NCBI GenBank assembly: GCA_963700535.1
Contig: CAVOXU010000002.1
Span: 88,094-152,093, forward strand
DNA length: 64,000 bases
Source of the DNA: Chrysiogenales bacterium
GTDB lineage: Bacteria > Acidobacteriota > Aminicenantia > UBA2199
Reading direction: 5' to 3'
Shown: positions 3,096 through 48,805 of the stretch, in pieces
How positions within the stretch are numbered: the first letter of the stretch is position 1
How the letters are laid out: each line of letters opens with the position of its first letter
The notes under the pieces: generated by a model
Databases searched by the model: none
Seen by the model: only the letters and a program-made list of their open reading frames with translations
Told to the model about the DNA's origin: nothing
Translations under genes and position numbers: made by a program

Positions 3096-3130
3096 GGGGC
3101 GCGCCGCAAGCGCGCCCCGCGAACCTTTTT
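3096..3130 (-). terminator. GC-rich hairpin with U-rich flanks, likely intrinsic terminator for the 3134..4333 gene
   Basis: The hairpin ggggcgcgc-cgcaa-gcgcgcccc is followed on the minus strand by guuauuuaa and on the plus strand by gcgaaccttttt. Confidence 0.5.
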
Positions 3131-3133
3131 GCC

Positions 3134-8070: not shown

Positions 8071-8133
8071 ATGAAATCGGTATAAGGTTTAGGGTATACG
8101 GTGGACGGTGAAGACAAAAGAGAGTAATAATTA

Positions 8134-8161
8134 GTAGTGACAGGTCGCGACCTGTCACTAC
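8134..8161. repeat. REP-like 28-bp perfect palindrome, copy 1
   Basis: gtagtgacaggtcgcgacctgtcactac, followed by the flank ccgatgatga. Confidence 0.85.
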
Positions 8162-8182: not shown

Positions 8183-8710
8183 ATGATTCATCAACGTAAA
8201 TACATGCGTTTGCGTGGTTGGGATTACACATCTCCCGGTTGGTATTTTATGACGATCTGCGTGAAAAACAAGGAGTGCTTCCTAGCTGATATTGTAAATG
8301 GGAAAATTATTCCGAATGAGTTCGGAAAAATCGTTGAGTCACGATGGGTTTGGCTTAGAAATCAATATCCTTATGTTGAATTGGACGCTTTTGTCGTCAT
8401 GCCGAATCATGTTCATGGATTGGTTCGGATCGTCAATCCGTCTGTAGTGACAGGTCGCGACCTGTCACTACTGATGATTCCGGAGAAAATCAAATCTTTA
8501 TCCGAAATAATTGGTGCTTTTAAAATGACTTCTTCCAAGGACATCCATTTGGCTGGCTTTCCCAATTTCTTCTGGCAGCGGTCTTTTTATGAAAAAATTA
8601 TTCGTTCGGAACAGGAAGCAAATGCGGTTCGTAAGTATATCAGGGAAAATCATTTGAATTGGGAACAGGATGATGAGAATCCCGACATTGATTTCCGTAA
8701 AATTCCGTAG
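8183..8710 (+). CDS. REP-associated tyrosine transposase (RAYT, IS200/Y1 HuH family)
   Basis: HuH motif MPNHVHGLV and a catalytic Tyr context (WQRSFYEKI). Flanked by REP palindromes, and a 36-nt in-frame palindrome-derived insert encodes SVVTGRDLSLLM. Confidence 0.7.
   Translation: MIHQRKYMRLRGWDYTSPGWYFMTICVKNKECFLADIVNGKIIPNEFGKIVESRWVWLRNQYPYVELDAFVVMPNHVHGLVRIVNPSVVTGRDLSLLMIPEKIKSLSEIIGAFKMTSSKDIHLAGFPNFFWQRSFYEKIIRSEQEANAVRKYIRENHLNWEQDDENPDIDFRKIP
8444..8471. repeat. REP-like 28-bp palindrome, copy 2 (inside the RAYT coding sequence, in frame)
   Basis: Identical 28-mer to copy 1. Confidence 0.85.
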
Positions 8711-8734
8711 TGACAGGTCGCGACCTGTCACTAC
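8707..8734. repeat. REP-like 28-bp palindrome, copy 3 (overlaps the RAYT stop codon)
   Basis: Identical 28-mer. The TAG stop at 8708-8710 lies inside the palindrome. Confidence 0.85.
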
Positions 8735-9756: not shown

Positions 9757-10968
9757 TTAGCCCAGGACTTCTCTGATCTTCTCCATGGCGGCATCGATGT
9801 CACCCTTGGTGATGACCAGGGGCGGTGCAAAGCGGATGATCCAGTCATGGGTCTCCTTGCAGAGCAGGCCCTTTTCTTTCAAAGCGGTGGTGTACTGGCG
9901 GGCTTTGCCTGCCGATTCGTGCAGGACCACGCCGATCAGCAGCCCTTTGCCGCGCACCAGCTTGATTTTATTCGTTTTTTTCTGAAGATCTTTCAATTGG
10001 CCAATGAAATATCCGCCCATCTCAGCGGCGCGCTCGGACAACTTTTCATCCAGCAGCACATCGATCGAGGCCATGGCCACGGCACAGCCCAGGGGATTGC
10101 CGCCGAAAGTGGAGCCGTGGCTGCCGGGTTTGAAGACCCCCAGCACATCCTGGTTGGCGGCCACGGCGCTGACCGGGAATACACCGCCACCCAGTGCCTT
10201 GCCCATGATGATGATGTCGGGATCGATATCTTCGTGCTGGTAGGCAAACAGCTTGCCGGTGCGGCAGAAGCCGGTCTGGATCTCGTCCACGGCCAGCAGG
10301 ATGTTGTTTTTTTCAGCAATCGCGCTCAAGCCTTTCAGGTAGCCGTCGTCCGGAACCACAACGCCGGCTTCGCCCTGGATGGGTTCGACCATTATGCCGA
10401 CAGTGTTATTATTGACCGCTTTTTCAACGGCTTTCAGGTCGTTGTAGGGGACGATCTTGAAGCCGGGGGTGAAAGGGCCATAGTTATCTTTGGCGATCGG
10501 ATCGCTGGAAAAGGAGACGATGGTGGTGGTGCGGCCGTGAAAATTTTCGCTGAAAACGATGATTTCGGCCTTATCGGCGTCCACTTTCTTGACCAGGTAA
10601 CCCCACTTGCGCATGGTTTTGATGGCCGTCTCCACGGCCTCGGCCCCGGTATTCATGGGCAGGATCATCTCTTTGCCGGTCAACTCGGACAGTTTTTTGG
10701 CGAATATCGGCCAGCGGTCATTGAAAAAGGCCCGTGATGTCAGGGTAAGGATGTCGGCCTGGTCTTTCAGGGCCTTGATGATGGCCGGATGGCGGTGGCC
10801 CTGGTTGACGGCAGAATAGGCGGACAGCATGTCGATGTAGCGCTTGCCTTCAGGGTCTTCAACCCAAATGCCCTCGGCCTTGGCGATAACCACTTCCAGG
10901 GGGTGGTAGTTGTGGGCACCGTAGCGATGCTCGATATCCATTAATTCCTGTGAACTCAATTTATTCAT
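9757..10968 (-). CDS. rocD: Ornithine aminotransferase
   Basis: Class III aminotransferase. N-terminus MNKLSSQELMDIEHRYGAHNYHPL is typical of OAT. Confidence 0.85.
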   Translation of the reverse strand: MNKLSSQELMDIEHRYGAHNYHPLEVVIAKAEGIWVEDPEGKRYIDMLSAYSAVNQGHRHPAIIKALKDQADILTLTSRAFFNDRWPIFAKKLSELTGKEMILPMNTGAEAVETAIKTMRKWGYLVKKVDADKAEIIVFSENFHGRTTTIVSFSSDPIAKDNYGPFTPGFKIVPYNDLKAVEKAVNNNTVGIMVEPIQGEAGVVVPDDGYLKGLSAIAEKNNILLAVDEIQTGFCRTGKLFAYQHEDIDPDIIIMGKALGGGVFPVSAVAANQDVLGVFKPGSHGSTFGGNPLGCAVAMASIDVLLDEKLSERAAEMGGYFIGQLKDLQKKTNKIKLVRGKGLLIGVVLHESAGKARQYTTALKEKGLLCKETHDWIIRFAPPLVITKGDIDAAMEKIREVLG

Positions 10969-11040
10969 GAAATCACCTCGTTTTAGTTTGGATTTTATTG
11001 TAGCAGTTTAAACTATTTCGTCAATAGGGAGGCAAGGCCA

Positions 11041-11141
11041 GTAATTCGTAATACGTAATTCGTAAATCGAAACAGCAATCAGACAAATCCAGAAGAATAC
11101 TCTTTTTCTTCCGAATCACTAATCACGAATTACGAATCACG
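11041..11141. repeat. Intergenic inverted-arm element, locus B (heptamer units aaNNcgt)
   Basis: Left arm gtaattcgtaatacgtaattcgtaaatcg. Right arm ccgaatcactaatcacgaattacgaatcacg (imperfect reverse complement). Confidence 0.6.
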
Positions 11142-11231
11142 TAGTGCTTGAAATGCCATAGGCTTGATTATTTTTAACGAAAACGGTATATTTTTTGCGT
11201 AATGCAAAGAATTGATGCTGAGGAGGTCAGG

Positions 11232-11681
11232 ATGAAGGTTGGCAAGATTCTCGAAAACAAGGCCAGCGTTGTATTTTCAGTTCACATTGACGCCATTGTC
11301 AGCGATGCCTTGCAAAATATGGATGAAAAAAATATTGGTGCCCTGATGGTGATCGACAGCCAGGAAAACATCCAGGGCATTGTTTCCGAAAGAGATATCG
11401 TGCGCAACTGCTACCGCAACCAGGCCAATGTCAAGGGGCTGGCCATCCGTGACGTTATGACTCCGCGCGGCAAGCTGCTGGTGGCACGAGCCGAAGATGA
11501 CATCAACAACCTGATGGGGGCCATGACCCAGAACCATATCCGCCACATCCCGGTGGTCAATGAACAGGACAAGGTTGTGGGTATGGTGTCCATTGGCGAT
11601 ATCATCAAGGCCATGTTGAAGGACAAGGATTACCAGATCCGCCACTTGAAGGACTATATCGAAAGCAAATACCCATTATAA
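11232..11681 (+). CDS. CBS-pair domain protein
   Basis: Two CBS motifs. GAGGAGG Shine-Dalgarno before the ATG at 11232. Confidence 0.7.
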   Translation: MKVGKILENKASVVFSVHIDAIVSDALQNMDEKNIGALMVIDSQENIQGIVSERDIVRNCYRNQANVKGLAIRDVMTPRGKLLVARAEDDINNLMGAMTQNHIRHIPVVNEQDKVVGMVSIGDIIKAMLKDKDYQIRHLKDYIESKYPL

Positions 11682-11687
11682 TATCTT

Positions 11688-11822
11688 CAGGTTCGATGTG
11701 CGGAGTTCGATGTTCGACGTTGGAAAACCTTAAAACGAACAAAACAAGAAAAAATATCGATTATTGCTGATTTACAGATATTGCTTTCTAACCTCGAACT
11801 TCGAACCTCGAACTTCGAACCT
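11688..11822. repeat. Intergenic inverted-arm element, locus C (heptamer gttcgaN units)
   Basis: Left arm aggttcgatgtgcggagttcgatgttcgacgtt. Right arm aacctcgaacttcgaacctcgaacttcgaacctt, followed by a T-rich tract. Confidence 0.65.
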
Positions 11823-11826
11823 TGTT

Positions 11827-12957
11827 TTATTTCTGAGCGCTGATCTTTTCGCTGAACCACTTCCAGAGCGCATGGTGAAAGGCGAGCGTGGGTGGGTTCT
11901 CCTGCAGGAAGGACAGGGGATTGAAGTCCAGGGGGGCACCGGTCTGGCGGCGCTGGAAAAGGCCTTTGCGGTAGAGGGTGTGGCGTTCGGGATGAAATTG
12001 GATGCCCAGGACGTTGGGGAAAATGCGGTGTTCAACTGCTTCCACGATTTTTTTGTCCAGTGAGGTCGCAGTCACATGCAAATTTGCACCCAGTTCAGCG
12101 ATCGCCTGGTGGTGGGCCGTGGCCACGAAGGGACGGTCCCCTCCTGAAAATCCCATCTCGCGCACAAAAATGCTGTCTGCACCCAGGCGGATGCGATGGA
12201 ACGTCATCATCAGTTCCGTATCGTTCGGGAAGAGCTTTCCCAGGTAGATTCCCGAATGGATCCGGTCAGGATCTGCTGCCAGGACTTCCTCCACCGTCTT
12301 TTGACCGTACACTTCGCTGGGGATGTCCTGGGTCAGGCTGCCGCCGGTGGCCACGTTCAGGCTCTGGGCCCCCAGGCAGATGGCCAGCAGGGGAAAATTC
12401 CTGCGCCCGGCCAGGAACGGGATGAAAGCCGGATTCCTGCTGCTGCCCAGCAGGTGAAAAATCAAGGAGATCTCGTAATAGGAACGCGCCGGCGTCGAGG
12501 GTTCGGAAAGCAAGCTGATCCCCTGGTTATACAGCGTTGGCGGAATATCCATGCCCCCGGTGAAAATGATGCCGCTGGCCGCGCTGAAGATCTCCTTGAA
12601 TTGGGAAGTCCATAGGTTTTCCTGGAACAGGTCTTTGGCGTCCACCCGGCCAGTTATTTTTCGGAATTGAATCCAGGTGAGCCGATTCTGCTGTACGTAT
12701 GCGAAGGCTTCCTGGAAAGCTTTGGCTTCCTCGCCATTGGCGAGTTCATCCTCGTGGTAGATCCCCAGCAGCACCAGTGATTTCAAAGGCAGGATGTTTT
12801 TTTCGTACAATTCCACTATATTTTGAACCTGGAAGAGGGTAGGATGGGTCATGATAATAACCGGCGCTCCCGCGGAGAAATCCTCTCCCTGCGCTGCCGC
12901 CGTCAGACCCAGGCCGATCAGCAGCAGAAAAATCCATATCAGGTTCTTTTTTTTCAT
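11827..12957 (-). CDS. Secreted class I glutamine amidotransferase-like / peptidase C26 family protein
   Basis: Signal peptide MKKKNLIWIFLLLIGLGLTAAA. GATase1 motifs (ICLGAQ, GIQFHPE). Confidence 0.7.
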   Translation of the reverse strand: MKKKNLIWIFLLLIGLGLTAAAQGEDFSAGAPVIIMTHPTLFQVQNIVELYEKNILPLKSLVLLGIYHEDELANGEEAKAFQEAFAYVQQNRLTWIQFRKITGRVDAKDLFQENLWTSQFKEIFSAASGIIFTGGMDIPPTLYNQGISLLSEPSTPARSYYEISLIFHLLGSSRNPAFIPFLAGRRNFPLLAICLGAQSLNVATGGSLTQDIPSEVYGQKTVEEVLAADPDRIHSGIYLGKLFPNDTELMMTFHRIRLGADSIFVREMGFSGGDRPFVATAHHQAIAELGANLHVTATSLDKKIVEAVEHRIFPNVLGIQFHPERHTLYRKGLFQRRQTGAPLDFNPLSFLQENPPTLAFHHALWKWFSEKISAQK

Positions 12958-18432: not shown

Positions 18433-18643
18433 GGGGGCTGCTCCTTAAGTTGTGCGGGCTGATTATACCATTGGAGCGCGAATTCGCCTACCGTTTTCTG
18501 GGGAAGACGCTGAATCGGTTTGCAGTGAAATAGTTATTTGTGATTGGTCAAAAGAAAGATAAAATCAAGCGGACAGGGCAACAGTAATAAGTATCTTTGA
18601 AAATCTTGCTTCTCAGCCATTCACTTGCCTCTGATTGCCCCAA

Positions 18644-19366
18644 TTACGACAATTCGTCAATTTTTTGTACCATGGCGCTGGCTTTCATGGACATGGGGCT
18701 TAGCATTCCGGCCAGTTTTTCGAATTGAGCTCTGGCTGCTTGCTTCTGACCCTGACGCAGCAGCACGAAACCTTTGTAATAAAGAGCTTCGTCAAAATAT
18801 GCTGGATCCATGGCGCGGATGATGGCATCGAATATTTCGCCGGCTTTGGCCGCTTCGTCCTCGCCAAGATAGCAGATGGCGCGGAAGAATTCGATCTTGG
18901 GGTAGCCGGCTTCCTCCATGAGGGGGCCTTCAAGCAGGTTCAGGGCCGGGCGGAACCTTCTTTCTTGGAGATGTTTCATGGCCTGAGAAAACTTTGCCTC
19001 AATTGCCGCGCCATTTTCCGGAATACGCCTCAGTTCGCCCTGGTGGTATGGGGGGATTTCAAATGCCGAAATTTCCAGAAGCAGGCGGGCTTGCCGTTTC
19101 TGCTGCACCAGCAGGAAGGAAAACAGGGTGAGCAGGAAAAGTGAAGACATGATCAGCAGTGGTTTGAAAAGTTTCAGGGCAAAGGCCCGCGGCTTTTCCT
19201 CCAGGGTGATGCGCACTTCTTTATTTTGCAGTGATTCATTCAGTTTCAACCCGAGAAAGCACTTTCGGCAGTGGAAAAAATGTTCTTCAAATTTTTCGCG
19301 CCGGGGTTCGTCTATTGTTTCCTGCAAATAGGCATCAATCAGGTTTTTAAATTCATTGCATCTCAT
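18644..19366 (-). CDS. Anti-sigma factor (zf-HC2, single TM helix, TPR-like C-terminus)
   Basis: N-terminal C...H...C..C pattern, TM helix IMSSLFLLTLFSFLLV, and position directly downstream of the ECF sigma gene. Confidence 0.6.
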   Translation of the reverse strand: MRCNEFKNLIDAYLQETIDEPRREKFEEHFFHCRKCFLGLKLNESLQNKEVRITLEEKPRAFALKLFKPLLIMSSLFLLTLFSFLLVQQKRQARLLLEISAFEIPPYHQGELRRIPENGAAIEAKFSQAMKHLQERRFRPALNLLEGPLMEEAGYPKIEFFRAICYLGEDEAAKAGEIFDAIIRAMDPAYFDEALYYKGFVLLRQGQKQAARAQFEKLAGMLSPMSMKASAMVQKIDELS

Positions 19367-35322: not shown

Positions 35323-35339
35323 GAATCCAAACAGAGCCA

Positions 35340-35488
35340 GGTTTACGGCATACGGTAGACGGTTTACGGCAAAAAAAGAACGCAACCTTTCCCCCAGGAT
35401 CTTATCGAATTTGCAGCCGTTCAAGGTGATTTTCTTAGGTAGTGTCTTTGGCTTTCACCGTCTGCCGTCAACCGTAAACCGTACACCG
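35340..35488. repeat. Intergenic inverted-arm element, locus D (heptamer NNNacgg units)
   Basis: Left arm ggtttacggcatacggtagacggtttacggc. Right arm caccgtctgccgtcaaccgtaaaccgtacaccg. Confidence 0.65.
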
Positions 35489-35506
35489 ATAACAGTTCAA
35501 GATCAT

Positions 35507-38266: not shown

Positions 38267-38304
38267 TCATTCGCGGATTTGCCGAACTTGGCATCCTCCC
38301 TTGT

Positions 38305-38398
38305 CCCCCCCTTCAGTAAGGGGGGAATTTGAAAGGTTAGAGAAGTTGAGTGATTTCTGCTAAAGCGATTGCTTCCAACCCCCCTTTGCTAAGGGGGG
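38305..38398. repeat. Pair of C7/G6 hairpins separated by 53 nt (locus G)
   Basis: cccccccttcagtaagggggg and cccccctttgctaagggggg lie in the def/mutL divergent region. Confidence 0.55.
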
Positions 38399-38546
38399 TG
38401 GCGCAGGCGGGGGGATCTATATGTCGTGTATCAATGGTTTTGTTATTGTCGTCTCTTTAGGGTTGTGTGTTTCGAATTGCAAAAGAAGCGGCTTTGTGAT
38501 ATTTTTTCCAGATTGCCGGCAGGTTAGCCGGCTGCTGGGAGTAGTT

Positions 38547-40241
38547 GTGGCCAGAATTCAGGTTTTAGCTGAAAGTGTGTTTCGCAAGATCGCCGCCGGT
38601 GAGGTAATCGAACGCCCGCTTTCCGTGGTAAAGGAGCTGGTGGAAAACGCCATTGATGCCGGTGCCAGCGAGATCGCCGTGGCCATGCTGTCCGGAGGCA
38701 AGGAAATGATTCGTGTCGAGGACAATGGCTGCGGCTTTGGCGCTGACGATATCGAGATTGCTTTCCAGCGCCACAGCACTTCCAAGCTGGTGGAACTGGA
38801 AGACCTGGACCGCTTGTTGACCCTGGGCTTTCGCGGCGAGGCCCTGCCCTCCATCCTGGAAGTGGCCGATATCGACCTGGACACTGCCGACAACAACGAT
38901 GGCCGCGGCTGGCACTGTCGTTTCCGTGGCGGCAGGATGCTGGAGAAAAAACAGGCCTCCTGTCGCCGGGGCAGTGCCGTGACGGTGCAGCAGCTGTTCG
39001 CCAATTTCCCGGTGCGCCGCAAGTTCATGAAAAGCGACCAGGGGGAGATGCGGCCGGTTGCCGCTTTTCTGGAAAATGCGGCCCTGGCCCGTCCCGCCAT
39101 CGCCTTCTCCTTGCAGCACAATGGCAGGACGGTATTTTCTTACCCTGCGGCCGCGAATCTCTCTGAACGCATCTATCAGGTCTTTGGAAAGGAGTTTCTG
39201 GACGATTTGCGGCCCGTGGATTTTGCCTCCGGCCACTTCTCTCTTAACGGTTTCATTTCGGCGACGCAAACCGGCGTCAGCGGCAAAGGACGCCAGTTTT
39301 TCATGGTTAACGGACGGCCGGTCAAGGAAAAAACCCTGCTGGCCGCTTTCAACAATACCTATCGGCCCTACCTGGAAAAATCTCGCAGTCCGGTCGGGGT
39401 GCTCCATTTTAATGTTCCTCCCAGCCAGATCGATGTCAACGTCCATCCCATGAAGCTGGAGATACGCTTCCTGGACAGCCAGCGCGTATACCAGTTCCTG
39501 CAGCAGGCCATCGACACCACCCTGGGGCGGCCGCTGCGCCCGCAGTCCGTTGCCTTCAACGAATTTTCTCAGCCTGCGGCTTTTGCCGGCCCGGACGCCG
39601 GAAGCAATGCGATCTCCGCTGCGGCGCCCGCGCTTTTCGACAGGGCAGCGCTTGATCCCGGGGATGATTTTTGCCTGCTGGGTCAATACCTGAATTCTTA
39701 TATCGTGGTCGAAAAAAACGGAGAACTGCTGATCATCGACCAGCACAATGCCCGGGAAAGAGTACTGTTCGAACGCTTGCAGATCGGCTACAACTCCGGC
39801 AACGCCCCAGCGGCGCAGACCCTGTTCCCGCTGCTGCTGGAATTGTCTCCGGCGGAACGGGCGGCCCTTGATGAAAGCAAAATGATTTTCTTTAAAAAAG
39901 CCGGTTTTGACATCCGTCTATTAAGCGGCTCGGCCATTGAGATCAAGGCATATCCGCAGTTTTTAAGCGAAGCAGGCATCCGCGATTCCCTGCGCGCCGC
40001 ACTGCGTGAATCACCTGCCGGGGACAGGTCGCCCGGAGAATTGAACGATGATGAGCATAGGCTTGCCGCCCTGGCCTGCCACGACGCAGTCAAGGTTAAC
40101 CAGCGCTTGCAGCCCGAGCAGCAGCGTGCTTTGGTCCGGGACCTTTTTGCCTGCGCCCATCCCTATTTTTGCCCGCACCGCCGTCCGATCATCGTTACCC
40201 TGACCCAGGCCGACATTGAAAAGCAACTGAAACGACGCTGA
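38547..40241 (+). CDS. mutL: DNA mismatch repair protein MutL
   Basis: GHKL ATPase N-terminus (VIERPLSVVKELVENAIDAG) and a MutL C-terminal dimerisation domain. GTG start with a GGGAG Shine-Dalgarno. Confidence 0.85.
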   Translation: MARIQVLAESVFRKIAAGEVIERPLSVVKELVENAIDAGASEIAVAMLSGGKEMIRVEDNGCGFGADDIEIAFQRHSTSKLVELEDLDRLLTLGFRGEALPSILEVADIDLDTADNNDGRGWHCRFRGGRMLEKKQASCRRGSAVTVQQLFANFPVRRKFMKSDQGEMRPVAAFLENAALARPAIAFSLQHNGRTVFSYPAAANLSERIYQVFGKEFLDDLRPVDFASGHFSLNGFISATQTGVSGKGRQFFMVNGRPVKEKTLLAAFNNTYRPYLEKSRSPVGVLHFNVPPSQIDVNVHPMKLEIRFLDSQRVYQFLQQAIDTTLGRPLRPQSVAFNEFSQPAAFAGPDAGSNAISAAAPALFDRAALDPGDDFCLLGQYLNSYIVVEKNGELLIIDQHNARERVLFERLQIGYNSGNAPAAQTLFPLLLELSPAERAALDESKMIFFKKAGFDIRLLSGSAIEIKAYPQFLSEAGIRDSLRAALRESPAGDRSPGELNDDEHRLAALACHDAVKVNQRLQPEQQRALVRDLFACAHPYFCPHRRPIIVTLTQADIEKQLKRR

Positions 40242-40257
40242 GGCAAAGCAAGAAGTC

Positions 40258-41847
40258 ATGAAAACAAAGAAAAACAGCATCGCGACTGCCAAAAGCAAAG
40301 ATGGATTTGCCGAAAAAAATAATTCCGCCTCTTGGCCCGGCCTGTTGCAGTCGGCCATCATGTCCGCTCGCGAAGCCGTTTTCCTGACCGATCGCCAAGG
40401 AACGATCTGCTTTGCCAATCCCGCCTTTGAGAAACTGAGCGGCTACACTGTCGCCGAGGTGCTGGGAAAAAATCCGCGCCTGCTCGGCAGCGGCAGCCAG
40501 ACCCGGGACTTTTACCGCGAGTTGTGGGACCGTCTTGCCAACGGCGAATCCTGGCAGGGTGAATTCATCAACAGGAAAAAAAACGGTTGCCTGTACACCC
40601 AGGGCACATCAATTTCTCCGGTTTTCGCTGCCGATGGGCGCATCAGTCATTTTTTGGCCATTGCCGCCGACATCAGCAATGAAAAAAATGTTGAGGAACA
40701 GTTTTTTCAAGGGCTGAAAATGGATTCTCTGGGACGTTTAGCCGGGGGCATCGCTCACGATTTCAACAACCTGCTGACCATAATCAACGGCTATGCTGAA
40801 ATGCTGCTGTCCGACAGTTCCAGCAGCAGCCGGGCGCGCGAGAATGTGCAATGCATATACAACGCCGGCGAGAAAGCGGCGCGCTTGATCTCCCACATCC
40901 TGGCTTTCAGCCGCAAGCAGATCATTTATCCGCGGGTTCTGAATGTCAATGGCGTGGTGCGCGAACTGCAGCAGATGCTTCGCGGCATCCTGGGCGAGAA
41001 TATCGCCTTGCAGATAGACCTTGCCGCCGACGCCGCCCCGATCTGCATCGACTACTCCCAGCTTGAGCAGGTGATCATGAACCTGGCGGTCAATGCCCGT
41101 GATGCCATGCCTTCCGGGGGCAGGCTTATGCTGGCCAGCTTAAATTTCAGAATGGACGACGATTTTGTCGGGAATCATCTCGGCGCCAAAAAGGGCGAAT
41201 ACGTACGCTTGGAGATCTCTGACAGCGGGCGGGGCATGGCTTTGGAAGTGCAGCAGCATATCTTCGAACCATTTTTCACCACCAAGCGGCTGGGCGAGGG
41301 CAGCGGACTGGGGCTGGCCTCGGTATACGGCATCGTCAAGCAGAACCGGGGCTACATCACCTTTGACAGCGAGCCCGGCCGGGGAACGCGTTTCAGCATC
41401 TATTTTCCCAAGCATGAATATCTGGATCTGGATGAGGTAGGGGATGGGTCCGGCCTAAAGAAACCTCCCTTTGCCGGTCGCACCGTCCTTTTGATAGAAG
41501 CAGACGATACGGTGCGCAAGCTGACCGAAAAAGTAATGCTGGCGGCCGGATTCCAGGTAATGGAATCGGTGAATTGGCCGCTGGCCGTACGCCTGGTAAA
41601 GGAGGACCGCCACCAACTCGACCTGATTGTGGCCGATGTCCTGGTTCCGGAAATGCCCGGCTGGGATGCTGCGAAAAAAATACTGGCCGCCCACCCTGAA
41701 GCCAGGGTGCTGCTTACCTCCGGCTATTCTGAAAAACGGTTGCTGCTGCCCGGGAAGCCCGGCCAGAATATCCATTTCATCTGCAAACCATACAACCGCC
41801 AGGAATTGCTGGAAAAAATCGCCGAGATCCTGGCTAAAAAAGATTGA
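40258..41847 (+). CDS. Hybrid sensor histidine kinase (PAS, HisKA/HATPase, C-terminal receiver)
   Basis: PAS region, H-box GIAHDFNNLL, G-boxes, and a receiver domain with a conserved Asp. Confidence 0.8.
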   Translation: MKTKKNSIATAKSKDGFAEKNNSASWPGLLQSAIMSAREAVFLTDRQGTICFANPAFEKLSGYTVAEVLGKNPRLLGSGSQTRDFYRELWDRLANGESWQGEFINRKKNGCLYTQGTSISPVFAADGRISHFLAIAADISNEKNVEEQFFQGLKMDSLGRLAGGIAHDFNNLLTIINGYAEMLLSDSSSSSRARENVQCIYNAGEKAARLISHILAFSRKQIIYPRVLNVNGVVRELQQMLRGILGENIALQIDLAADAAPICIDYSQLEQVIMNLAVNARDAMPSGGRLMLASLNFRMDDDFVGNHLGAKKGEYVRLEISDSGRGMALEVQQHIFEPFFTTKRLGEGSGLGLASVYGIVKQNRGYITFDSEPGRGTRFSIYFPKHEYLDLDEVGDGSGLKKPPFAGRTVLLIEADDTVRKLTEKVMLAAGFQVMESVNWPLAVRLVKEDRHQLDLIVADVLVPEMPGWDAAKKILAAHPEARVLLTSGYSEKRLLLPGKPGQNIHFICKPYNRQELLEKIAEILAKKD

Positions 41848-41903
41848 AAAAGGATCAAGCAAGTGAAAAATACCTGGATAAAGACTCGGTATAAGCTGTA
41901 AGA

Positions 41904-42040
41904 CATACGGTTTACGGCGAAGAAAATAACATCAAAATCCAGCCTTAGTCCCGGCAATTTCTTTGTCAGCCGTTTGCCGTGCGTCGTTTCCGTCCGCCGA
42001 ACTCTTCAACCTCGAACTTCGAACAGCGAACCTTTTTGAC
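41904..42040. repeat. Intergenic element, locus E, a mosaic of D-type (acgg) and C-type (cgaac) arms
   Basis: catacggtttacggcg pairs with gccgtttgccgtgcgtcgtttccgtccgccg. It is followed by caacctcgaacttcgaacagcgaacctttttgac. Confidence 0.6.
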
Positions 42041-42118
42041 ATTCGTCCCGGGCTATGTTACCATTGCCTTTCACTTTGGCTTCCCGGCCAATCCGTTCGG
42101 ATGAAAGAGGTGTGAAAC

Positions 42119-42745
42119 ATGTTCAAATCCCTGGTTCCGAAAAACGAAATTTTTTATGAACTCTTCGACCAGATCAGCGCCAATACGGTCGAAGGTGTGC
42201 AGACCCTGGTCAAAATGCTCGACGACTGTGAGCATTACAACGAGTACGCTGTCAGCCTGAAGTCGCTGGAGCACCAGACCGACCTTTTGGTGCACAGCGT
42301 CATGTCGCACCTGCACAAGACATTCGTCACGCCCATCGACCGCGAAGACATCCACCAGCTGGCCTCTCGCCTGGACGACATCCTGGACCTGGCCGAAGCC
42401 GCCAGTTCGCGCATCGATCTCTACCGTCCCTGCGCCGTGCCGCGCGAAGCCAAGGAACTGAGCCACGTGCTGCTGGAAAGCGTCAAGCTGGTCAAGGAAA
42501 TGGTCGGCCTGCTGCGCGTACTGAAAAAACCGGCGCGCATCATGGAACTGACCGTGGAGATCAACCGCCTGGAGGACCAGGCCGACTACATCCGCCGCAG
42601 CACCCTGGCCCGTCTTTTCCGCGAGGAAAAGGACCCCTTCGAGCTGATCAAGTGGAAGGATATCCTGGAATACATCGAACGGGCCACCGACCGCTGCGAG
42701 GACGTGGCCGACATCACCGAAGGCATCGTCCTGGAAAATACTTGA
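42119..42745 (+). CDS. DUF47 (PhoU-like) family protein, partnered with Pit
   Basis: 208-aa helical protein immediately upstream of the PiT transporter. Confidence 0.7.
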   Translation: MFKSLVPKNEIFYELFDQISANTVEGVQTLVKMLDDCEHYNEYAVSLKSLEHQTDLLVHSVMSHLHKTFVTPIDREDIHQLASRLDDILDLAEAASSRIDLYRPCAVPREAKELSHVLLESVKLVKEMVGLLRVLKKPARIMELTVEINRLEDQADYIRRSTLARLFREEKDPFELIKWKDILEYIERATDRCEDVADITEGIVLENT

Positions 42746-42758
42746 CCGAATAAGCACC

Positions 42759-43757
42759 ATGATGATCCTGATCGTTTTCATTGTTTTTCTCGCCCTGCTT
42801 TTTGATTTCATCAACGGCATGAACGATGCCGCCAATTCGGTGGCGACCATCGTTTCCACGCGCGTCCTCTCCCCGCGCCAGGCCGTGCTTTGGGCGGCTT
42901 TCTTCAACTTTGTCGCCGCCTTTCTTTTTGGCGTGCACGTGGCCAACACCATCGGCAAAGGGATAATTGATTCGCGAGTCGTTTCCGCCCCCATGATCCT
43001 GGCTACTTTGATCGGTGCCATTGTCTGGTCATATTTGTGTACCCACATGGGATTGCCGATCAGCATCTCGCACGCCCTGGTTGGCGGCCTGGTCGGCGCC
43101 GCCCTGGCCAAAGGCGGCATCAAGGCGCTGGTCGTTTCAGGGCTGTTGAAGATCTCCCTGTTCATCGTCCTGGCGCCGCTGATCGGAATGCTGCTGGGCT
43201 ATATGCTCATGATCCTGGTCATGTGGATCTGCCACAAGCGTGCGCCGCGGACTGTGGACCACTGGTTCCGCCGTCTGCAGCTCTTTTCCGCCGCCCTGTA
43301 CAGCCTCGGCCACGGCACCAACGATGCCCAGAAGACCATGGGGGTCATCGCCATGCTGCTGTACTCCACCGGCCACCTGGGTTCAACTTTTTATGTGCCG
43401 GTGTGGGTGATCCTGAGCTGCCACGCGGCGATCGCCCTGGGCACCTTGAGCGGCGGCTGGAAGGTGATCGAGACCCTGGGCATGAAAGTGACCAAGCTCA
43501 AGCCCGTGCACGGCTTCAGCGCCGAGACCGCCGCGGCGGGATCCATCCTTATGTCTTCATTATTGGGCGTCCCGGTATCCACCACCCATACCATCACCGG
43601 GGCCATCATCGGCGTCGGCGCCACCACCCGCCTGTCGGCCATCCGCTGGGGGCTGGCCTATCGCATAGTCTGGGCCTGGATCCTGACCATCCCGGGATCG
43701 GCCCTGGTCGCGGCCCTTTGCTGGTACGGCATATCGCTGCTGCACCTTCCCGGCTGA
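42759..43757 (+). CDS. pit: Inorganic phosphate transporter, PiT family
   Basis: GMNDAANS and GTNDAQKTMG signature motifs. Confidence 0.85.
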   Translation: MMILIVFIVFLALLFDFINGMNDAANSVATIVSTRVLSPRQAVLWAAFFNFVAAFLFGVHVANTIGKGIIDSRVVSAPMILATLIGAIVWSYLCTHMGLPISISHALVGGLVGAALAKGGIKALVVSGLLKISLFIVLAPLIGMLLGYMLMILVMWICHKRAPRTVDHWFRRLQLFSAALYSLGHGTNDAQKTMGVIAMLLYSTGHLGSTFYVPVWVILSCHAAIALGTLSGGWKVIETLGMKVTKLKPVHGFSAETAAAGSILMSSLLGVPVSTTHTITGAIIGVGATTRLSAIRWGLAYRIVWAWILTIPGSALVAALCWYGISLLHLPG

Positions 43758-44004: not shown

Positions 44005-44887
44005 GTGGCACAAAAAAAATGGATATTTTTTGGCAATAGGCCTCTAGCCTGGCGCTGGGTCTCTGGTTCTCCGGCTGCGGCCGGCAGGGGCAAGAAGGCC
44101 GATTCTCTCCAGATCAAGGGCTCGGACACCATGGTCAACCTGGGCCAGGCCTGGGCCGAAGAGTTCATGAAAGCGAATCCCAAGGTGTCGGTGGCCGTCA
44201 CCGGCGGCGGTTCGGGCACGGGCATCGCCGCCATGCTTTCCAACACATGCGACATCGCCGAACTCTCGCGCGAGCTCAAGCCCGAGGAGATCGCCATGGC
44301 CAAAAAGAAGGGCTTCGAGCCAAAACAGATCGTCGTGGCCCTGGACGGGCTGGCCGTGGTGGTCCATCCCGCCAACCCGCTGTCGCAGCTGACCCAGGAC
44401 CAGTTGGCCGCGATCTTTTCCGGTTCCGTCAGCAATTGGAAAGACGTCGGCGGCAGCGACCTGCCCATCGTGGTCCTGTCGCGCGAGGTCAACTCCGGCA
44501 CCCATGTCTATTTCAAGGAGCACGTGCTGCGCCGCAACCGCAAGGAGAGCCAGGTGGAATTCGCCGCCAATGCCCTGATGCTGCCCAGTTCCCAGGCCAT
44601 CGCCGACGAAGTGGACCAGAATCCCAGGCGCCATCGGCTATTACGGCATGGGCTACATTTCCCCGAAGGAAAAAGCCCTGGCCATCGCCAAGGATGCCGA
44701 TTCTCCATATGTTCAGCCTACCATTGAAAATGTCGTCAGCCAGGCTTATCCCATTTCGCGTCCGCTGCTCATGGTCAGCCGCGGCCAGCCCACGGGACTG
44801 GTGGCCCGCTTTATCGATTTTATACTCAGCCCGGAAGGACAAAAGATCGTGGTCAAGATCGATTTCGTGCCGGTGAAAAGCAATTAA
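44005..44887 (+). CDS. pstS: Phosphate ABC transporter substrate-binding lipoprotein PstS, with about four frame breaks
   Basis: The lipoprotein signal (..LALGLWFSGCGRQGQEG) is spread over three frames in 44010-44110. The core is SLQIKGSDTMVNLGQAWAEEF. Another frame break near 44627 joins ORF 44648..44887. Confidence 0.8.
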
Positions 44888-44893
44888 ACAAAG

Positions 44894-45775
44894 ATGAAAC
44901 CCATTCGGGTCCGCAAGCTGAAGGAATGGCTCATAGAAAGATCCATTTTGCTCAGCGGCATATTTTCCGTTGTTTTTGTGTTGCTGATATTCCTTTTCTT
45001 GCTGCGCGAAGGACTTTCCCTTTTTCGCGGCGAAAGCGTGATCGATTTTCTTTTCGGCAAGAGCTGGTACCCCATCTCCGATCCGCCGCGCTTCGGCATC
45101 CTGCCGCTTATCCTCGGCTCGCTGCTGGTCACTTTGGGAGCGGCCGCCATTTCGGTGCCCATCGGCATCGCCGCCGCGTTGTATATCGCCGAGATCGCTC
45201 CGCGGCGGCTCAAAGAGGTCCTGAAGGCCGGCATTGAACTCCTGGCCGCCATCCCCTCGGTGGTCATCGGCTTCATCGGCATGATCACCCTCGGGCCCTG
45301 GATCAAAAATATTTTCAACATCCCTACCGGGCTGACGGCCCTGACCGGCTCGGTCACCCTGGCCTTCATGGCCATGCCCACCATCGTTTCCATCGCCGAG
45401 GATGCCATCACCGCCGTGCCGCGGCAATACCGCGAAGCGGCCATCGCCATGGGAGCCACCAAGTGGCAGACCACCTGGCGCATCGTGGCCCGCGCCGCCC
45501 GCCCGGGCATGCTGGCCGCGGTCATGCTGGGCATCGGCCGGGTAATCGGCGAGACCATGGCCGTGATGATGGTCACCGGCAATGCCGCCATCATCCCCAC
45601 CAGTTTCCTGCAGCCGGTGCGCACCCTGACCGCGACCATCGCCGCCGAAATGGGCGAGTCGGTGCAGGGAGGGCCTCATTACGCCGCCCTGTTCGCCATC
45701 GGCATCGTGCTCTTTGTCATCACCTTCCTGATCAACGGTGTGGCCGATCTTTACCTGCACCGCTCGCGCCGCTAG
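44894..45775 (+). CDS. pstC: Phosphate ABC transporter permease PstC
   Basis: Six-TM permease with the EAA loop. Confidence 0.85.
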   Translation: MKPIRVRKLKEWLIERSILLSGIFSVVFVLLIFLFLLREGLSLFRGESVIDFLFGKSWYPISDPPRFGILPLILGSLLVTLGAAAISVPIGIAAALYIAEIAPRRLKEVLKAGIELLAAIPSVVIGFIGMITLGPWIKNIFNIPTGLTALTGSVTLAFMAMPTIVSIAEDAITAVPRQYREAAIAMGATKWQTTWRIVARAARPGMLAAVMLGIGRVIGETMAVMMVTGNAAIIPTSFLQPVRTLTATIAAEMGESVQGGPHYAALFAIGIVLFVITFLINGVADLYLHRSRR

Positions 45776-45777
45776 CC

Positions 45778-46624
45778 ATGAACGCGCGCCTGGCCCAGAA
45801 GATCGCTTTTGCGCGTCCTGCTGCTGGCCACCCTGCTGGTGGTGCTGCCGGTGCTGGTCATCCTGCTGATCATCGTGGTCAAAGGGGCCAGCGCCATCAG
45901 CTGGGATTTCCTTTTTTCCATGCCCCGCGACGGCATGACCGCCGGCGGCATTTTTCCGGCCATCCTGGGCACGCTCTACCTGGTGATCGGGGCCATTATC
46001 TTTGCCGTGCCGCTGGGCGTCATGGCCGCCGTTTACCTGGTCGAATATTCCAGCGACAACTGGCTGTCGCGCCTGGTCAAGTTGTCCATCGTCAACCTGG
46101 CCGGCGTGCCGTCGGTGGTCTACGGCCTTTTCGGCCTGGGGATCTTTGTCACCTTCTTCGGTTTCGGCGCCTCGATCCTGTCCGGGTCGCTGACCCTGGG
46201 CATCATGATCCTGCCGGTGATCATCACCTCGTCGCGCGAAGCGCTGGAAAGCGTGCCCCGGCATTTCCGCACCGTAAGCCTGTCGCTGGGAGCCAGCCGC
46301 TGGCAGACCATCCGTCATTCGGTGCTGCCGCACGCCTTGCCGGGAATTTTGACCGGCATGATCCTCGGCCTGGGCCGCGCCGCCGGCGAGACCGCCCCCA
46401 TTCTCTTCACCGTGGCCGCATTTTACCTGCCGCGCCTGCCGCAGTCGATTTTCGATCAGACCATGGCTTTACCCTACCACCTGTACGTCATATCCACTCA
46501 GGTGCCTGGAATAGCCGAGAACGTCCGCTACGGCACGGCGCTGGTACTGCTGTCCCTGGTGCTGTTGCTCAACCTGGCCGCCATCCTGATCCGCTCCCGT
46601 TTCCGCAGGAAGAAAAAATGGTAG
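45778..46624 (+). CDS. pstA: Phosphate ABC transporter permease PstA, with a frameshift near 45812
   Basis: MNARLAQKIAF (frame 1) joins LRVLLLATLLVV... (frame of ORF 45809..46624). Confidence 0.8.
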
Positions 46625-47379
46625 ATCCGGCCGCCAAGTTCTCCATTCGCGCTTTCCATGTCCAATACGGCCAGTTCAGCGCCCTGCGCGACCTGAACCT
46701 GGAAATCATGGCCAACGAAATATTCACCGTCATCGGGCCGGCCAATTCCGGCAAAACCACTTTCCTCAATTCCCTGAATCGTTTGATCGACCTGGTCCCG
46801 GTCAGCCGCTGCAGCGGCGAGATCAAATTGGATGGAGTAGATATCCGCCGCAGTCTGGAAGTCGAAGCCTTGCGCCGCAAGGTCGGCATTGTATTTGCCC
46901 TGCCGCTACCGCTGCCCATATCAATTTTTGAAAATGTGGTCTACGGCCTGCGCATGCAAGGCATACGCGATGCGCGGCGCCTGAATGAAGCGGTAGAGAG
47001 AAGCCTCAGCGAATCGTATCTTTGGGAGGAGGTTAAAGACCGTTTGCGTACGCCGGCCATGAACCTTTCCGGCGGTCAGCAGCAGCGTTTGTGCATGGCC
47101 CGCATCCTGGCCGGCCAACCTGATGTGCTGCTTTTCGATGAACCAACCTCGGGGCTGGATCCGATTTCCACGGCCAGGATCGAGGAGACCCTGTTGATCT
47201 TGAAGGAAAAGTACACCATAGTGCTGGTGACCAACAACATAGCCCAGGCGGCCCGGGTTGGTGACCGCACTGCATTTTTTCTGATGGGGGACATGATCGA
47301 AGTGAGCGACACGGGCAAGATGTTCACCACGCCGGCCGATCAGCGCACCAGCGATTACATAACCGGCAAGTTTGGCTGA
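46618..47379 (+). CDS. pstB: Phosphate ABC transporter ATP-binding protein PstB
   Basis: Walker [25 protein letters not shown], Walker B. Overlaps the pstA stop (ATGGTAG). Confidence 0.9.
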
Positions 47380-47380
47380 C

Positions 47381-48138
47381 ATGAACGAGATCAGTATAGA
47401 AACCCGCGCCCTGGACCTTTTTTACGGCGATTTCCAGGCCCTTACCGGGATCGATCTGCGCATACCCGTCCGCCAGGTGACCGCCCTGATCGGGCCCAGC
47501 GGCTGCGGCAAGAGCACCCTGCTGCGGGTGTTCAACCGCATGAACGACCTGATCGACGGCGTGCGCGTCAAAGGCCAGGTCATTATCGACGGCCAAGACA
47601 TCTTCGCCCCCGGAGCCGACCTGCTCCGCCTGCGCGAAAAGGTGGGCATGGTCTTTCAGCGCCCCAATCCCTTTCCCCTTTCGGTTTATCGAGAACATTG
47701 TATTCGGCCTGGCCGTGCATCGCCTGGCGCGGCGGCAGGATTACGACGGCATAGTCGAACAGGCTTTGCGCAGCGTCCTGCTTTGGGATGACCTCAAGGA
47801 CCGGCTGCACCATTCGGCATTGAAACTGTCGCTGGAACAGCAGCAGCGCCTGTGCATCGCCAGGGTACTGCCTTTGAAACCGCAGATACTGCTCATGGAC
47901 GAACCCTGTTCAGCGTTGGATCCCGTGGCCACGCTGCATATTGAGGACCTGATGCAGAGACTGAAAAAAGAGTATACCATCGTCATTGTCACCCACAACA
48001 TGCAGCAGGCGGCCCGGGCCTCGGACCGCACCGGCTTCCTCTACCTTGGCAAGCTCATCGAGTTCGCTGAAACCGAAAAATATTCACCAAGCCGGCTCAG
48101 ACCATGACCGAAAACTACATCAGCGGCCGTTTCGGCTG
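47381..48138 (+). CDS. pstB: Second PstB paralog, with frameshifts near 47688 and 48073
   Basis: [24 protein letters not shown]. The C-terminus [21 protein letters not shown] is recovered by a 1-nt shift in an A-run. Confidence 0.8.
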
Positions 48139-48155
48139 AAACCAGGAGAAAGAAT

Positions 48156-48805
48156 ATGGCAAGAGAACATTTTCAAAACATGTTGCGCGGGCTGGAACAG
48201 GAACTGGTGGCAATGGGGGAGATGGTCATCACTGCCATCGACCGCTCTATCCAGGCGCTTAAGAACGTCGACAAGGCCGAAGCCGAACGCATCATCGCCG
48301 ACGATGCCCTGATCAACCAGCGGCGCTGGGACATCGAAAATCAATGCATCCAGCTTTTTGCCACCCAGCAGCCCGTGGCCGGTGACCTGCGTGAGATCGT
48401 GTGCCCTCATCGATGATCACCAACCTGGAGCGCATGGCCGACCACGCCAAGGGCATCGCCACCATCGTGGTCAGGCACGATCAGAAGCCGCTGCTCAAGC
48501 CGCTGATCGATATCCCGCGCATGGCTGACAAGGCCCGCGAAATGATCCAGAAAAGCCTGACCGCCTTCATCACCCAGGATGTGGAAGCGGCCGCTGCCAT
48601 CATTGAAATGGACAACGAAGTGGACGCTTTATACGATCAGATCTTCCGCGAGCTTCTGACCTACATGATGGAGGATCCCAAGACCATTACCCGCGCCGTC
48701 TACCTGATCTGGGTAAGCCACAACCTGGAACGCATCGCCGACCGCGTGACCAACATCTGCGAACGGATCATCTTCATGGTCACCGGCGAGATCCAATCGG
48801 ATTAA
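48156..48805 (+). CDS. phoU: Phosphate signalling regulator PhoU, with a frameshift near 48400
   Basis: Two PhoU repeats. ORFs 48156..48416 and 48401..48805 are contiguous. Confidence 0.8.

Follow-up and report, generated by a model that had tools for sequence, protein, structure and literature searches.

Inverted heptad arrays of two types joined upstream of a PhoU_div gene in Aminicenantia: a probable composite of dispersed palindromic repeats

Described short-unit repeats and locus E

Tandem heptamers emerged from the SPADE survey as the most abundant intergenic periodic repeat, with a function that is unknown (10.1101/309039). Xanthomonas genomes each contain about 185 degenerate GGGAATC arrays, mostly of 4 units and transcribed, and such arrays also occur in Nostoc; 70-75 convergent pairs per Xanthomonas genome lie about 28 nt from stop codons or even overlap the stop codon on their upstream side, with a position conserved between species, a variable sequence and length, and again an unknown function (Rehm et al. 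2015, PMC4692102). For G. metallireducens, Aklujkar et al. 2009 (PMC2700814) list paired inverted arrays, among them hepta- and octanucleotide ones, as 'global regulator binding sites' of classes 1-3. Here we describe locus E, an intergenic element in a stretch of 64,000 nucleotides of a Chrysiogenales bacterium (GTDB: Acidobacteriota, Aminicenantia; assembly GCA_963700535.1, contig CAVOXU010000002.1, positions 88,094 to 152,093), which as a whole is called the window; loci collected for comparison carry L numbers. With a probability of roughly 60%, we regard locus E as a composite, partly decayed member of a set of dispersed intergenic palindromic repeats that serve as selfish or near-neutral filler, resembling repetitive extragenic palindromes (REPs) and MITEs (miniature inverted-repeat transposable elements).

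The elements of this lineage, the Aminicenantes, agree with the Xanthomonas arrays in their imperfect tandem 7-nt units, of which there are about four or more per array, in their convergent orientation, and in their conserved intergenic slots near stop codons. The main difference is in the units, as the arrays of Xanthomonas and Nostoc are G-rich, whereas the Aminicenantes units (GTTCGAN, ACGGYNN, GTRATTN, GTGACGC) have no G-tracts, and the G-quadruplex that has been proposed therefore cannot apply in this lineage. Many unit types per genome, a common purine junction, and nested or mixed arrangements further distinguish the Aminicenantes side. The Geobacter sites (PMC2700814) are similar in that tandem arrays of 7-, 8- or 9-nt units lie variably spaced on the two strands, intergenic copies number in the dozens, some sites combine two classes, and insertion sequence (IS) elements adjoin them, but they belong to another phylum and have other units (GTTGCTYN, TCTCCGTS, MTYCTGA), and their binding role is put forward as a hypothesis only. 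The Aminicenantes elements are an addition to this published kind of heptamer pair, and what is new about them is that they are free of G-tracts, come in many unit types and have one junction in common. They provide a multi-type example without G-tracts from an uncultured phylum, and they expose the inward polarity and the purine junction as features common across heptad types. The TAACTGA repeats of Beggiatoa (PMC4679880) were set aside, being direct repeats of a single unit before start codons.

REPs and bacterial interspersed mosaic elements (BIMEs) are likewise short imperfect palindromes in gene-3' slots, mosaic and variable between strains, and here they occupy the very same slots. The REPs of this lineage are GTAG-type hairpins of about 28 nt accompanied by a REP-associated tyrosine transposase (RAYT), in contrast to the heptad elements, which measure 100-300 bp and have arms of tandem 7-mers. 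If a REP or REPtron is defined by a GTAG-type hairpin of 20-40 nt with a RAYT, the heptad elements fall outside the definition, and the palindromes at 8134-8161, 8441-8470 and 8704-8731 fall within it. The Correia/NEMIS MITEs of Neisseria and the foldback elements of Drosophila have terminal inverted repeats around a short non-coding centre and occur in many copies beside genes, and foldback elements have arms in which short units are tandemly repeated a variable number of times. The heptad elements, too, have terminal inverted repeats, and their termini are defined; no clear target-site duplication, empty site or parent transposon was found for them in the slots examined, and their copies are far more diverged than is typical of a MITE family. 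Omega, the ribbon-helix-helix (RHH) ParB protein of pSM19035, binds 7-10 contiguous WATCACW heptads and needs at least four of them (PMC9499535). The heptad elements resemble its operators in the 7-bp unit, in contiguous arrays of at least four units that are direct or inverted, in their occurrence at promoters, and in one arm type that fits WATCACW, but the Omega heptads are contiguous without a long spacer, plasmid-borne and of a single specificity. The units of locus E itself (ACGGNNN, NTCGAAC) do not agree with this consensus, which is matched only by arms of locus B, L001, L009 and L022. What is reminiscent of intrinsic terminators is the presence of inverted repeats downstream of genes and of a T-rich stretch after loci E and C, but the stems are imperfect and exceed 30 nt, the loops span 25-250 nt, and the T-run stands apart from any compact GC stem.

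Anatomy, distribution and turnover of the heptad elements

Locus E extends from 41885 to 42032: its left arm is of ACGG type, its right arm of CCGT type, and after these comes an unpaired array of three CGAAC heptads (Table 1). The original prediction had recognized an ACGG-type inverted pair joined to a CGAAC-type arm, and the bases are indeed as it described them. The left arm, which is the most degenerate of the heptad arrays, shares 78% identity over 41 nt with the arm of locus A at 8077 and begins with the family terminus CTCGG that is common to L010, L017 and L386. The junction CTCTTCAAC of the orphan CGAAC module is also found in L002, L003, L004 and L013, and no GTTCGA partner lies upstream of this module in the window, L002, L003 or L004. 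Its heptads are directly followed by TTTTTGACA (TTTTT-GAC). The fold z scores of locus E (-2.0 and -1.1) are among the weakest, as most elements reach -3 to -11 relative to shuffles on both strands. Rfam 15 gave no match at gathering score across the window and none with an E-value of up to 1 in 41840-42125, and a scan for tRNA and tmRNA found none. A reading of locus E as Pho box or sigma-54 site was dropped, since its repeats are spaced by 7 nt instead of 11 and nothing in it matches GG-N10-GC.

Locus E is thus made up of an ACGG-type pair (41885-42001) that abuts the inner junction of a leftover CGAAC module (42002-42032), the partner of which is gone. It would most likely have arisen when one element nested in an older element's spacer and the left arm of the latter was lost afterwards, because the GCCGAA end of the ACGG-type pair directly abuts the junction of the CGAAC module, which is where a GTTCGA-type spacer would begin. 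More generally, copies would be pasted into gene-3' and other intergenic slots and also into one another, arrays lengthen and shorten in 7-nt steps, presumably by slippage, and strains exchange the contents of whole slots, for which recombination via the flanking genes is the probable route.

The building block of all these elements is a module of 4-6 degenerate 7-nt units followed by a purine junction (GAAAG or GAAGA), and paired modules face inward around a spacer. When 50 arrays, collected in the window and in 20 related loci, were anchored on their inner ends, all of them finished with G(T/G)T and then GAAAG, GAAGA or GGAAG, and a weak 7-periodic base preference was seen in phase with the purine junction. 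The polarity of the array clusters was '+-' in 12 cases, '++--' in 2, '++-' in 2 and '+--' in 1, with no clean divergent pair among the clusters examined. Due to this inward symmetry, the order of parts is the same on both strands: an array and its purine junction, the centre, then a pyrimidine junction and the second array. The termini are CTCGG...CCGAG in the ACGG family and AGGTTCG...CGAACCT in the GTTCGA family. Spacers range from 24 to about 250 nt and often contain nested arrays of 7-, 8- or 11-nt units with a small central hairpin; the window copies have arms in common but differ in their spacers, which have no paralogue in any collected locus. In 29 aligned pairs, the arms are about 80% complementary, with 792 Watson-Crick positions and 191 mismatches (107 transversions, 31 plus-strand G:T, 53 minus-strand G:T), which is roughly what would be expected of two arrays with a 5-of-7 consensus in common. 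As there is no one-strand G:U excess in these pairs, a strand-specific RNA helix is disfavoured. Stop codons in three frames were considered as a cause of the 7-nt arrays and dropped, since GTTCGAN and ACGGYNN units contain no consistent stop.

It had been suggested that the arms are exchangeable modules, and the common inward junction of the 50 arrays together with orphan, nested and mixed-type clusters in relatives supports this view. A CCGT arm joined to CTCTTCAAC-(NTCGAAC)n beside the promoter occurs in the window, L002, L003 and L004 with 3, 1, 2 and 3 units, respectively, and the CGAAC arrays of the window and L003 differ by a clean 7-nt indel. Besides, a complete pair lies between an orphan left module and an orphan CGAAC module in L003 (5059-5240), a complete pair precedes an orphan right module in L010 (8220-8496), an orphan left module precedes a complete pair in L015 (5138-5288), and L004 (9661-9921) has orphan or mixed-type neighbours. 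Two further arrangements were noticed. In the E slot of L005 (about 1800-2010), a unit of about 65 nt that includes the right arm (ctttctcatcacgcataacggagttctg-aagntcgttcacgcatcacgtaggcta...) is present in three tandem copies. The inner 8-mer arrays of L016 (6740-7000) and L014 (6770-7040) have arms that differ by one central base (GTTGAAGN versus GTTCAAGN) and are swapped between the species, which looks like an inversion of the element centre by recombination between the arms.

At least six heptad elements (A, B, C, D, E, G) are present in the window. Their 7-nt periodicity greatly exceeds what chance would give: six segments of the window reach at least 16 of 21 self-matches at a lag of 7 and none does so at lags of 5, 8, 9 or 10, and Tandem Repeats Finder called period-7 arrays at 11041 and 11112 (locus B), 11691 and 11786 (locus C), and 35340 and 35457 (locus D). 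Five of the six elements either have a stop codon at most 40 nt from their start or occupy the gap of a convergent gene pair. As to relatives, PhoU_div orthologues at 86-98% identity all come from metagenome-assembled genomes of Candidatus Aminicenantes (Acidobacteriota), and L002, L001, L035 and L003 are 90-94% identical to the window in nucleotide sequence. Lag-7 arrays are common in these Aminicenantes relatives, a single lineage with at least eight heptad types, and are seldom seen in loci of greater distance. One locus each of Omnitrophota, Vicinamibacteria and betaproteobacteria has inverted heptad pairs of other units. A scan for three CGAAC heptads returned at least 120 metagenome stretches, and several unrelated metagenome contigs have the same plan: AGGTTCGA(N-GTTCGA)n, purine junction, spacer, pyrimidine junction, and (TCGAACN)n-CGAACCT. 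The phage contig IMGVR_UViG_3300012347_000612 (40.5 kb; genes for terminase gpA, lambda-type portal, S49 protease, HNH and Bro-N) has at least eight inverted CGAAC/GTTCG heptad elements between its genes (loci L203, L213, L217, L231, L253 and L259), with long CT-rich spacers, and two of these elements have a canonical terminator hairpin on one side and a TTGACA box on the other. Another kind is seen among the metagenome CGAAC arrays, some of which are not inverted pairs, recur every 66 nt or so with constant flanks (AAAAGMTGAACA...AGGGCGGCGGAAGGCG), and thus belong to a different, longer tandem repeat (L111 1504-2041, L104, L130/L136/L166/L174).

Between strains and species, the content of the slots changes as a whole. 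Slot E holds the ACGG type in the window, L003, L004, L010 and L017 and other types in L007/L008, L013/L014, L016, L018, L019 and L022. In L035, which is 92.7% identical and has the same flanking genes, it holds an unrelated L005-like element between aaaaatacctSgata and ttttgaca, and in L002 the left arm and spacer are deleted without replacement. Slot D is filled by the ACGG type in the window and L002, by GTGATTA in L001, L003, L009 and L022, and by GTTCGA in L019. Slots A, B and C were compared in six strains with a CBS protein 95-98% identical to that of the window. Slot A is taken up by a complete ACGG element in L386, and otherwise by other types of heptad element, by REP arrays, or by a REP-RAYT unit like that of the window. 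Slot B contains either a heptad element or an 8-mer-array element, with identical boundaries (CGTCAA / GGCTTGATT); in L382, L384 and L385, the CBS protein of which is 97-98% identical to the window's, the slot corresponding to 10968-11232 has an element of about 163 bp that is made of 8-nt units (GTTGAAGG/GTTAAAGA) around a small centre. Slot C contains a GTTCGA element, GTAG-type REP hairpin arrays, or a nested ACGG/CCAAAT element. The REP strings in this slot (GTAGGGGCG...CGCCCCTAC, CCCCCC...GGGGGG) cover 3450-3679 of L384, 3174-3401 of L385 and 3450-3657 of L387, and in the strains with a REP-filled slot C the CBS gene does not stop at TAA but at TAG, which is part of the GTAG in the REP. 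Two slots of the L016 genome hold copies that are identical at 145 of 164 positions over outer heptads, inner 8-mers and central hairpin, one clear case among the collected loci that points to duplicative spread. The constraint on sequence is not uniform: the elements of L013/L014 and of L001/L003 diverge at about the synonymous rate, and those of L016 and L018 differ grossly at a synonymous divergence of just 10.6%.

The T-run after locus E is part of a promoter

The original prediction had connected the elements to intrinsic terminators by their tails, since the T-run that ends locus E reappears elsewhere in the window. For locus E, the region upstream of the PhoU_div gene, aligned across 28 related loci, leads to a different assignment. 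A sigma-70-like promoter follows the element (Table 1), its -35 box begins within the T-run, and with the -10 box TACCAT (42059-42064) it reaches 10 of 12 matches in the promoter scan, accompanied by a TG at 42056-42057. All of the 20+ orthologues keep this arrangement (T-rich stretch, TTGAC(A/T), spacer, T-A-rich -10 box), whether it is preceded by a CGAAC arm, by an arm of another type or by no element (e.g. L001, L009, L011, L012, L015, L020), and in many species the elements of slot E stop 8-12 nt upstream of the -35 box. The T-run thus belongs to the promoter of the PhoU_div-Pit operon. For annotation, this means that a promoter and not a terminator lies after locus E, and that it is preceded by an array which varies between strains in 7-nt steps.

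No terminator-like site was called at locus E (41700-42300) or locus C (11600-11900), and neither these two nor the hairpin at 3097-3119 has a compact GC-rich stem of 5-20 bp that encloses 3-8 nt and is followed after 0-2 nt by a T-run. The tail gcgaaccttttt does recur exactly at 3119-3130, as had been claimed, but there the T-run begins 7 nt past the stem, and the hairpin was not called as a terminator on either strand. The 11-mer CGAACCTTTTT has two exact occurrences in the window and six matches with at most one mismatch, compared to 2.0 expected, a number that was reached in 2 of 100 shuffles. With 513 repeated 13-mer pairs in the window (about 75 in shuffles), the 13-mer that locus E shares with the hairpin at 3119 means little. 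CGAACC is followed by at least four T in 6 nt at 5 of 19 plus-strand sites, compared to a background of 5.6%, and two of these five sites lie in coding sequence. The shared tail is not in excess of chance and does not generalize, as none of the 18 minus-strand sites has it and outside the lineage a T-rich tail follows the CGAAC array in only 6 of 139 metagenomic cases (among the matches listed) and 0 of 73 viral cases. The most common sequence after the last CGAAC is CT, i.e. the start of a further heptad and not a T-run, and the recurrent terminus of the family is CGAAC-CT. As the promoter is kept without the element, as such tails are rare elsewhere, and as the hairpin at 3119 is no heptad array and was not called as a terminator, the proposed link to terminator tails is unsupported.

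The genes around this site may be mentioned here. Downstream of the PhoU_div-Pit operon there is apparently a phosphate-uptake cluster (44005-48805) with open reading frames (ORFs) that have the sizes of pstS, pstC, pstA and pstB, and a PhoU-domain protein is encoded at 48401-48805 (Pfam PhoU, E = 4e-30). The genes upstream of locus E (38421-41847) include a sensor kinase/receiver hybrid.

Competing explanations and other repeats of the window

Which explanation agrees best with these observations? Defined termini, paralogues, nesting, orphan modules, decay, replacement between strains, and a niche that is common with REPs form a pattern familiar from REP/BIME and MITE-like repeats, and it is for these reasons that we consider the heptad elements to be selfish or near-neutral filler. 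They and the REPs contest the same gene-3' slots, which vary greatly between strains. Locus E itself, an old composite copy in this view, probably does little, because its fold is weak and it is deleted or replaced in close relatives. Several observations weigh against this reading. No empty site and no clear target-site duplication was found in slots A-E, where every slot is filled by some repeat, and no transposase or other mobilising enzyme was found nearby except for the RAYT, which goes with the GTAG-type REPs. The spacers of five window copies have no paralogue in the collected loci, which is unlike a recent MITE burst. In addition, the window and L002 differ at 13.5% of third codon positions and have diverged in the adjoining coding flanks, yet their locus D arms match at 76 of 76 positions, which hints at constraint on at least some copies. 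Slots that stay filled across species of about 78% identity would also fit a functional element, and such an element would match the stop-codon adjacency seen in five of the six window cases as well as the eight copies in a compact phage genome.

A function of that kind could in principle lie in RNA or DNA hairpins, with arms that fold into a long imperfect stem and thereby terminate, insulate or stabilise the upstream mRNA. Locus E would then form the structure at the 3' end of the transcript of the kinase gene, and REP/BIME and Correia elements would be the precedents. The proximity of five of the six window elements to stop codons or their position in a convergent gap, the z scores of -3 to -11 that most elements reach on both strands, and the inward polarity, which results in the same arm order for transcripts of either direction, agree with this idea, as do the perfect complementarity of some inner unique segments (e.g. 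in L135), the conservation of the locus D arms above the neutral rate, and the Xanthomonas arrays, which are transcribed and adjoin stop codons (PMC4692102). Selection for pairing is difficult to reconcile, however, with an arm complementarity of about 80%, mismatches that are dominated by transversions, the missing one-strand G:U excess, and orphan modules that are unable to pair. For locus E in particular, the fold is weak (z of -1 to -2) and the left arm is gone in L002 with nothing in its place; moreover, divergent genes flank locus B, the phage elements adjoin separate canonical terminators, the terminator scan called nothing at E or C, and Rfam gave no match. We therefore consider hairpin function an unlikely explanation.

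Could the 7-nt register reflect proteins instead? The elements might be platforms for cooperative binding of one dimer per 7 bp, comparable to Omega/ParB, with either a cognate protein for each heptad type or one loosely specific nucleoid protein for all of them, and the CGAAC array beside the -35 box would be an operator or activator site of the PhoU_div-Pit promoter. The lack of covariation between the arms at the variable heptad positions is as expected for binding sites and not for helices. The elements of slot E end 8-12 nt 5' of the -35 box in many species, two phage copies lie immediately 5' of TTGACA, and the inner 8-mer arrays resemble MetJ-type 8-bp boxes. The register with 4-6 units fits the requirement of Omega for at least four contiguous heptads (PMC9499535), and the right arm of locus B (AATCACT AATCACG AATTACG AATCACG) as well as arms of L001, L009 and L022 (TATCACT/AATCACT) fit WATCACW, although by our own estimate such a fit would arise by accident with a chance of about 3% among some ten types. 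Binding of global regulators (IHF/HU) is also what Aklujkar et al. suggested for the Geobacter arrays (PMC2700814). On the other hand, at least eight heptad types in one lineage would demand many specificities, no RHH domain was detected when 10 small ORFs of the window and 20 ORFs of the phage were examined, and the palindromy of whole elements including unique inner sequence would be superfluous for binding. Elements also lie between convergent genes, where a promoter is not expected, and slot contents are freely exchanged for REPs, so that binding platforms appear quite improbable to us. A broader proposal, which we regard as equally speculative, is that the inward module is the recognition platform of an unrecognised, widespread system that marks gene boundaries in many phyla and phages. 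If this were true, the users of the platform could be cooperative DNA or RNA binders with one dimer per 7 bp, or a dedicated mobilising enzyme, with the heptad as an exchangeable address, and the system would explain the long-recognised excess of 7-nt periodic repeats in prokaryotic intergenic DNA.

The elements could, in contrast, not be dispersed at all, but represent local palindromes or terminators, the stems of which were lengthened in place by a bias of polymerase slippage towards 7-nt units while template switching matched the arms. The abundance of heptamer tandem repeats among the periodic intergenic repeats of prokaryotes (10.1101/309039), the exact 7-nt steps in unit number between relatives, and heptad sequences that vary from locus to locus would suit this view, and slippage was already proposed by Mrazek 2007 (cited in PMC4692102). 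It is contradicted by heptads, junctions and inner sequences that different slots of a single genome have in common, a partial sign of multi-copy families of full-length elements, by their recurrence in unrelated contigs and a phage, by the GAAAG-type junction and phase common to all types, and by abrupt changes of type between genomes of about 93% identity, a distance over which the locus D arms remain 100% identical. A purely local origin is thus very improbable.

Table 1. Coordinates of locus E, the adjacent operon and other features of the window
Feature	Position	Strand	Description
E left module	41885..41918	+	ctcggtataagctgtaagacatacggtttacggc; degenerate ACGG-type heptads ctcggtataa gctgtaa gacatac ggtttac ggc
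Inner purine junction of E left module	41919..41926	+	GAAGAAAA; directly 3' of left arm
E spacer	41927..41959	.	33 nt, unique sequence; no paralogue among all collected loci (blastn-short)
Mirror pyrimidine junction	41960..41968	+	tctttgtca; precedes E right arm
E right module	41969..42001	-	gccgtttgccgtgcgtcgtttccgtccgccgaa; CCGT type, the reverse complement of the ACGG type; ends GCCGAA; aligned with L002, L003, L004
Inner junction of orphan module	42002..42010	-	CTCTTCAAC (ctcttcaac); reverse complement GTTGAAGAG
Orphan CGAAC-type module	42011..42032	-	heptads ctcgaac ttcgaac agcgaac plus terminal C
Sigma-70-like promoter of PhoU_div-Pit operon	42033..42064	+	T-run 42033-42037, TTGACA 42036-42041, 17-nt spacer
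PhoU_div/DUF47 protein gene	42119-42745	+	PF01865 PhoU_div on record; first gene of operon 42119..43757
Probable Pit phosphate transporter	42759-43757	+	name inferred from gene order and size
GC hairpin	3097..3131	.	ggggcgcgc-cgcaa-gcgcgcccc, then gcgaaccttttt-g; between two minus-strand genes; not a heptad array
Locus A, ACGG-type left module only	8075..8114	+	no right arm; REP-RAYT-REP unit comes next
Locus B, GTAATTC/GAATCAC-type inverted element	11031..11157	.	between divergent genes
Locus C, GTTCGA/CGAAC-type inverted element	11689..11826	.	between convergent genes; fold z -4.9, -6.3
Locus G, degenerate GTGATT-type element	18525..18655	.	read by eye; fold z +0.2, +0.4: fold signal gone
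Locus D, complete ACGG-type inverted element	35339..35497	.	between convergent genes; fold z -3.5, -2.7 (two strands)

Among the other repeats of the window, the REPtron next to locus A, a slot in which L386 has a complete element, consists of the three GTAG-type palindromes named above (GTAGTGACAGGTCGCGACCTGTCACTAC) around the ORF 8183-8710, which encodes an IS200-like Y1 transposase (RAYT; Pfam Y1_Tnp, E = 1.7e-7). The middle REP (8441-8470) sits within this ORF and is read in frame. L387 and L388 have the REP GTAGTGACAGGTCGCGACCTGTCACTAC as well. At that slot, L387 has the RAYT, and in L382, L384, L386 and L388 it is missing or a remnant. Two C6-7/G6 hairpins, cccccccttcagtaagggggg at 38300-38325 and cccccctttgctaagggggg at 38378-38398, are located between divergent genes, and the corresponding slot of L003 is occupied by a nested heptad element.

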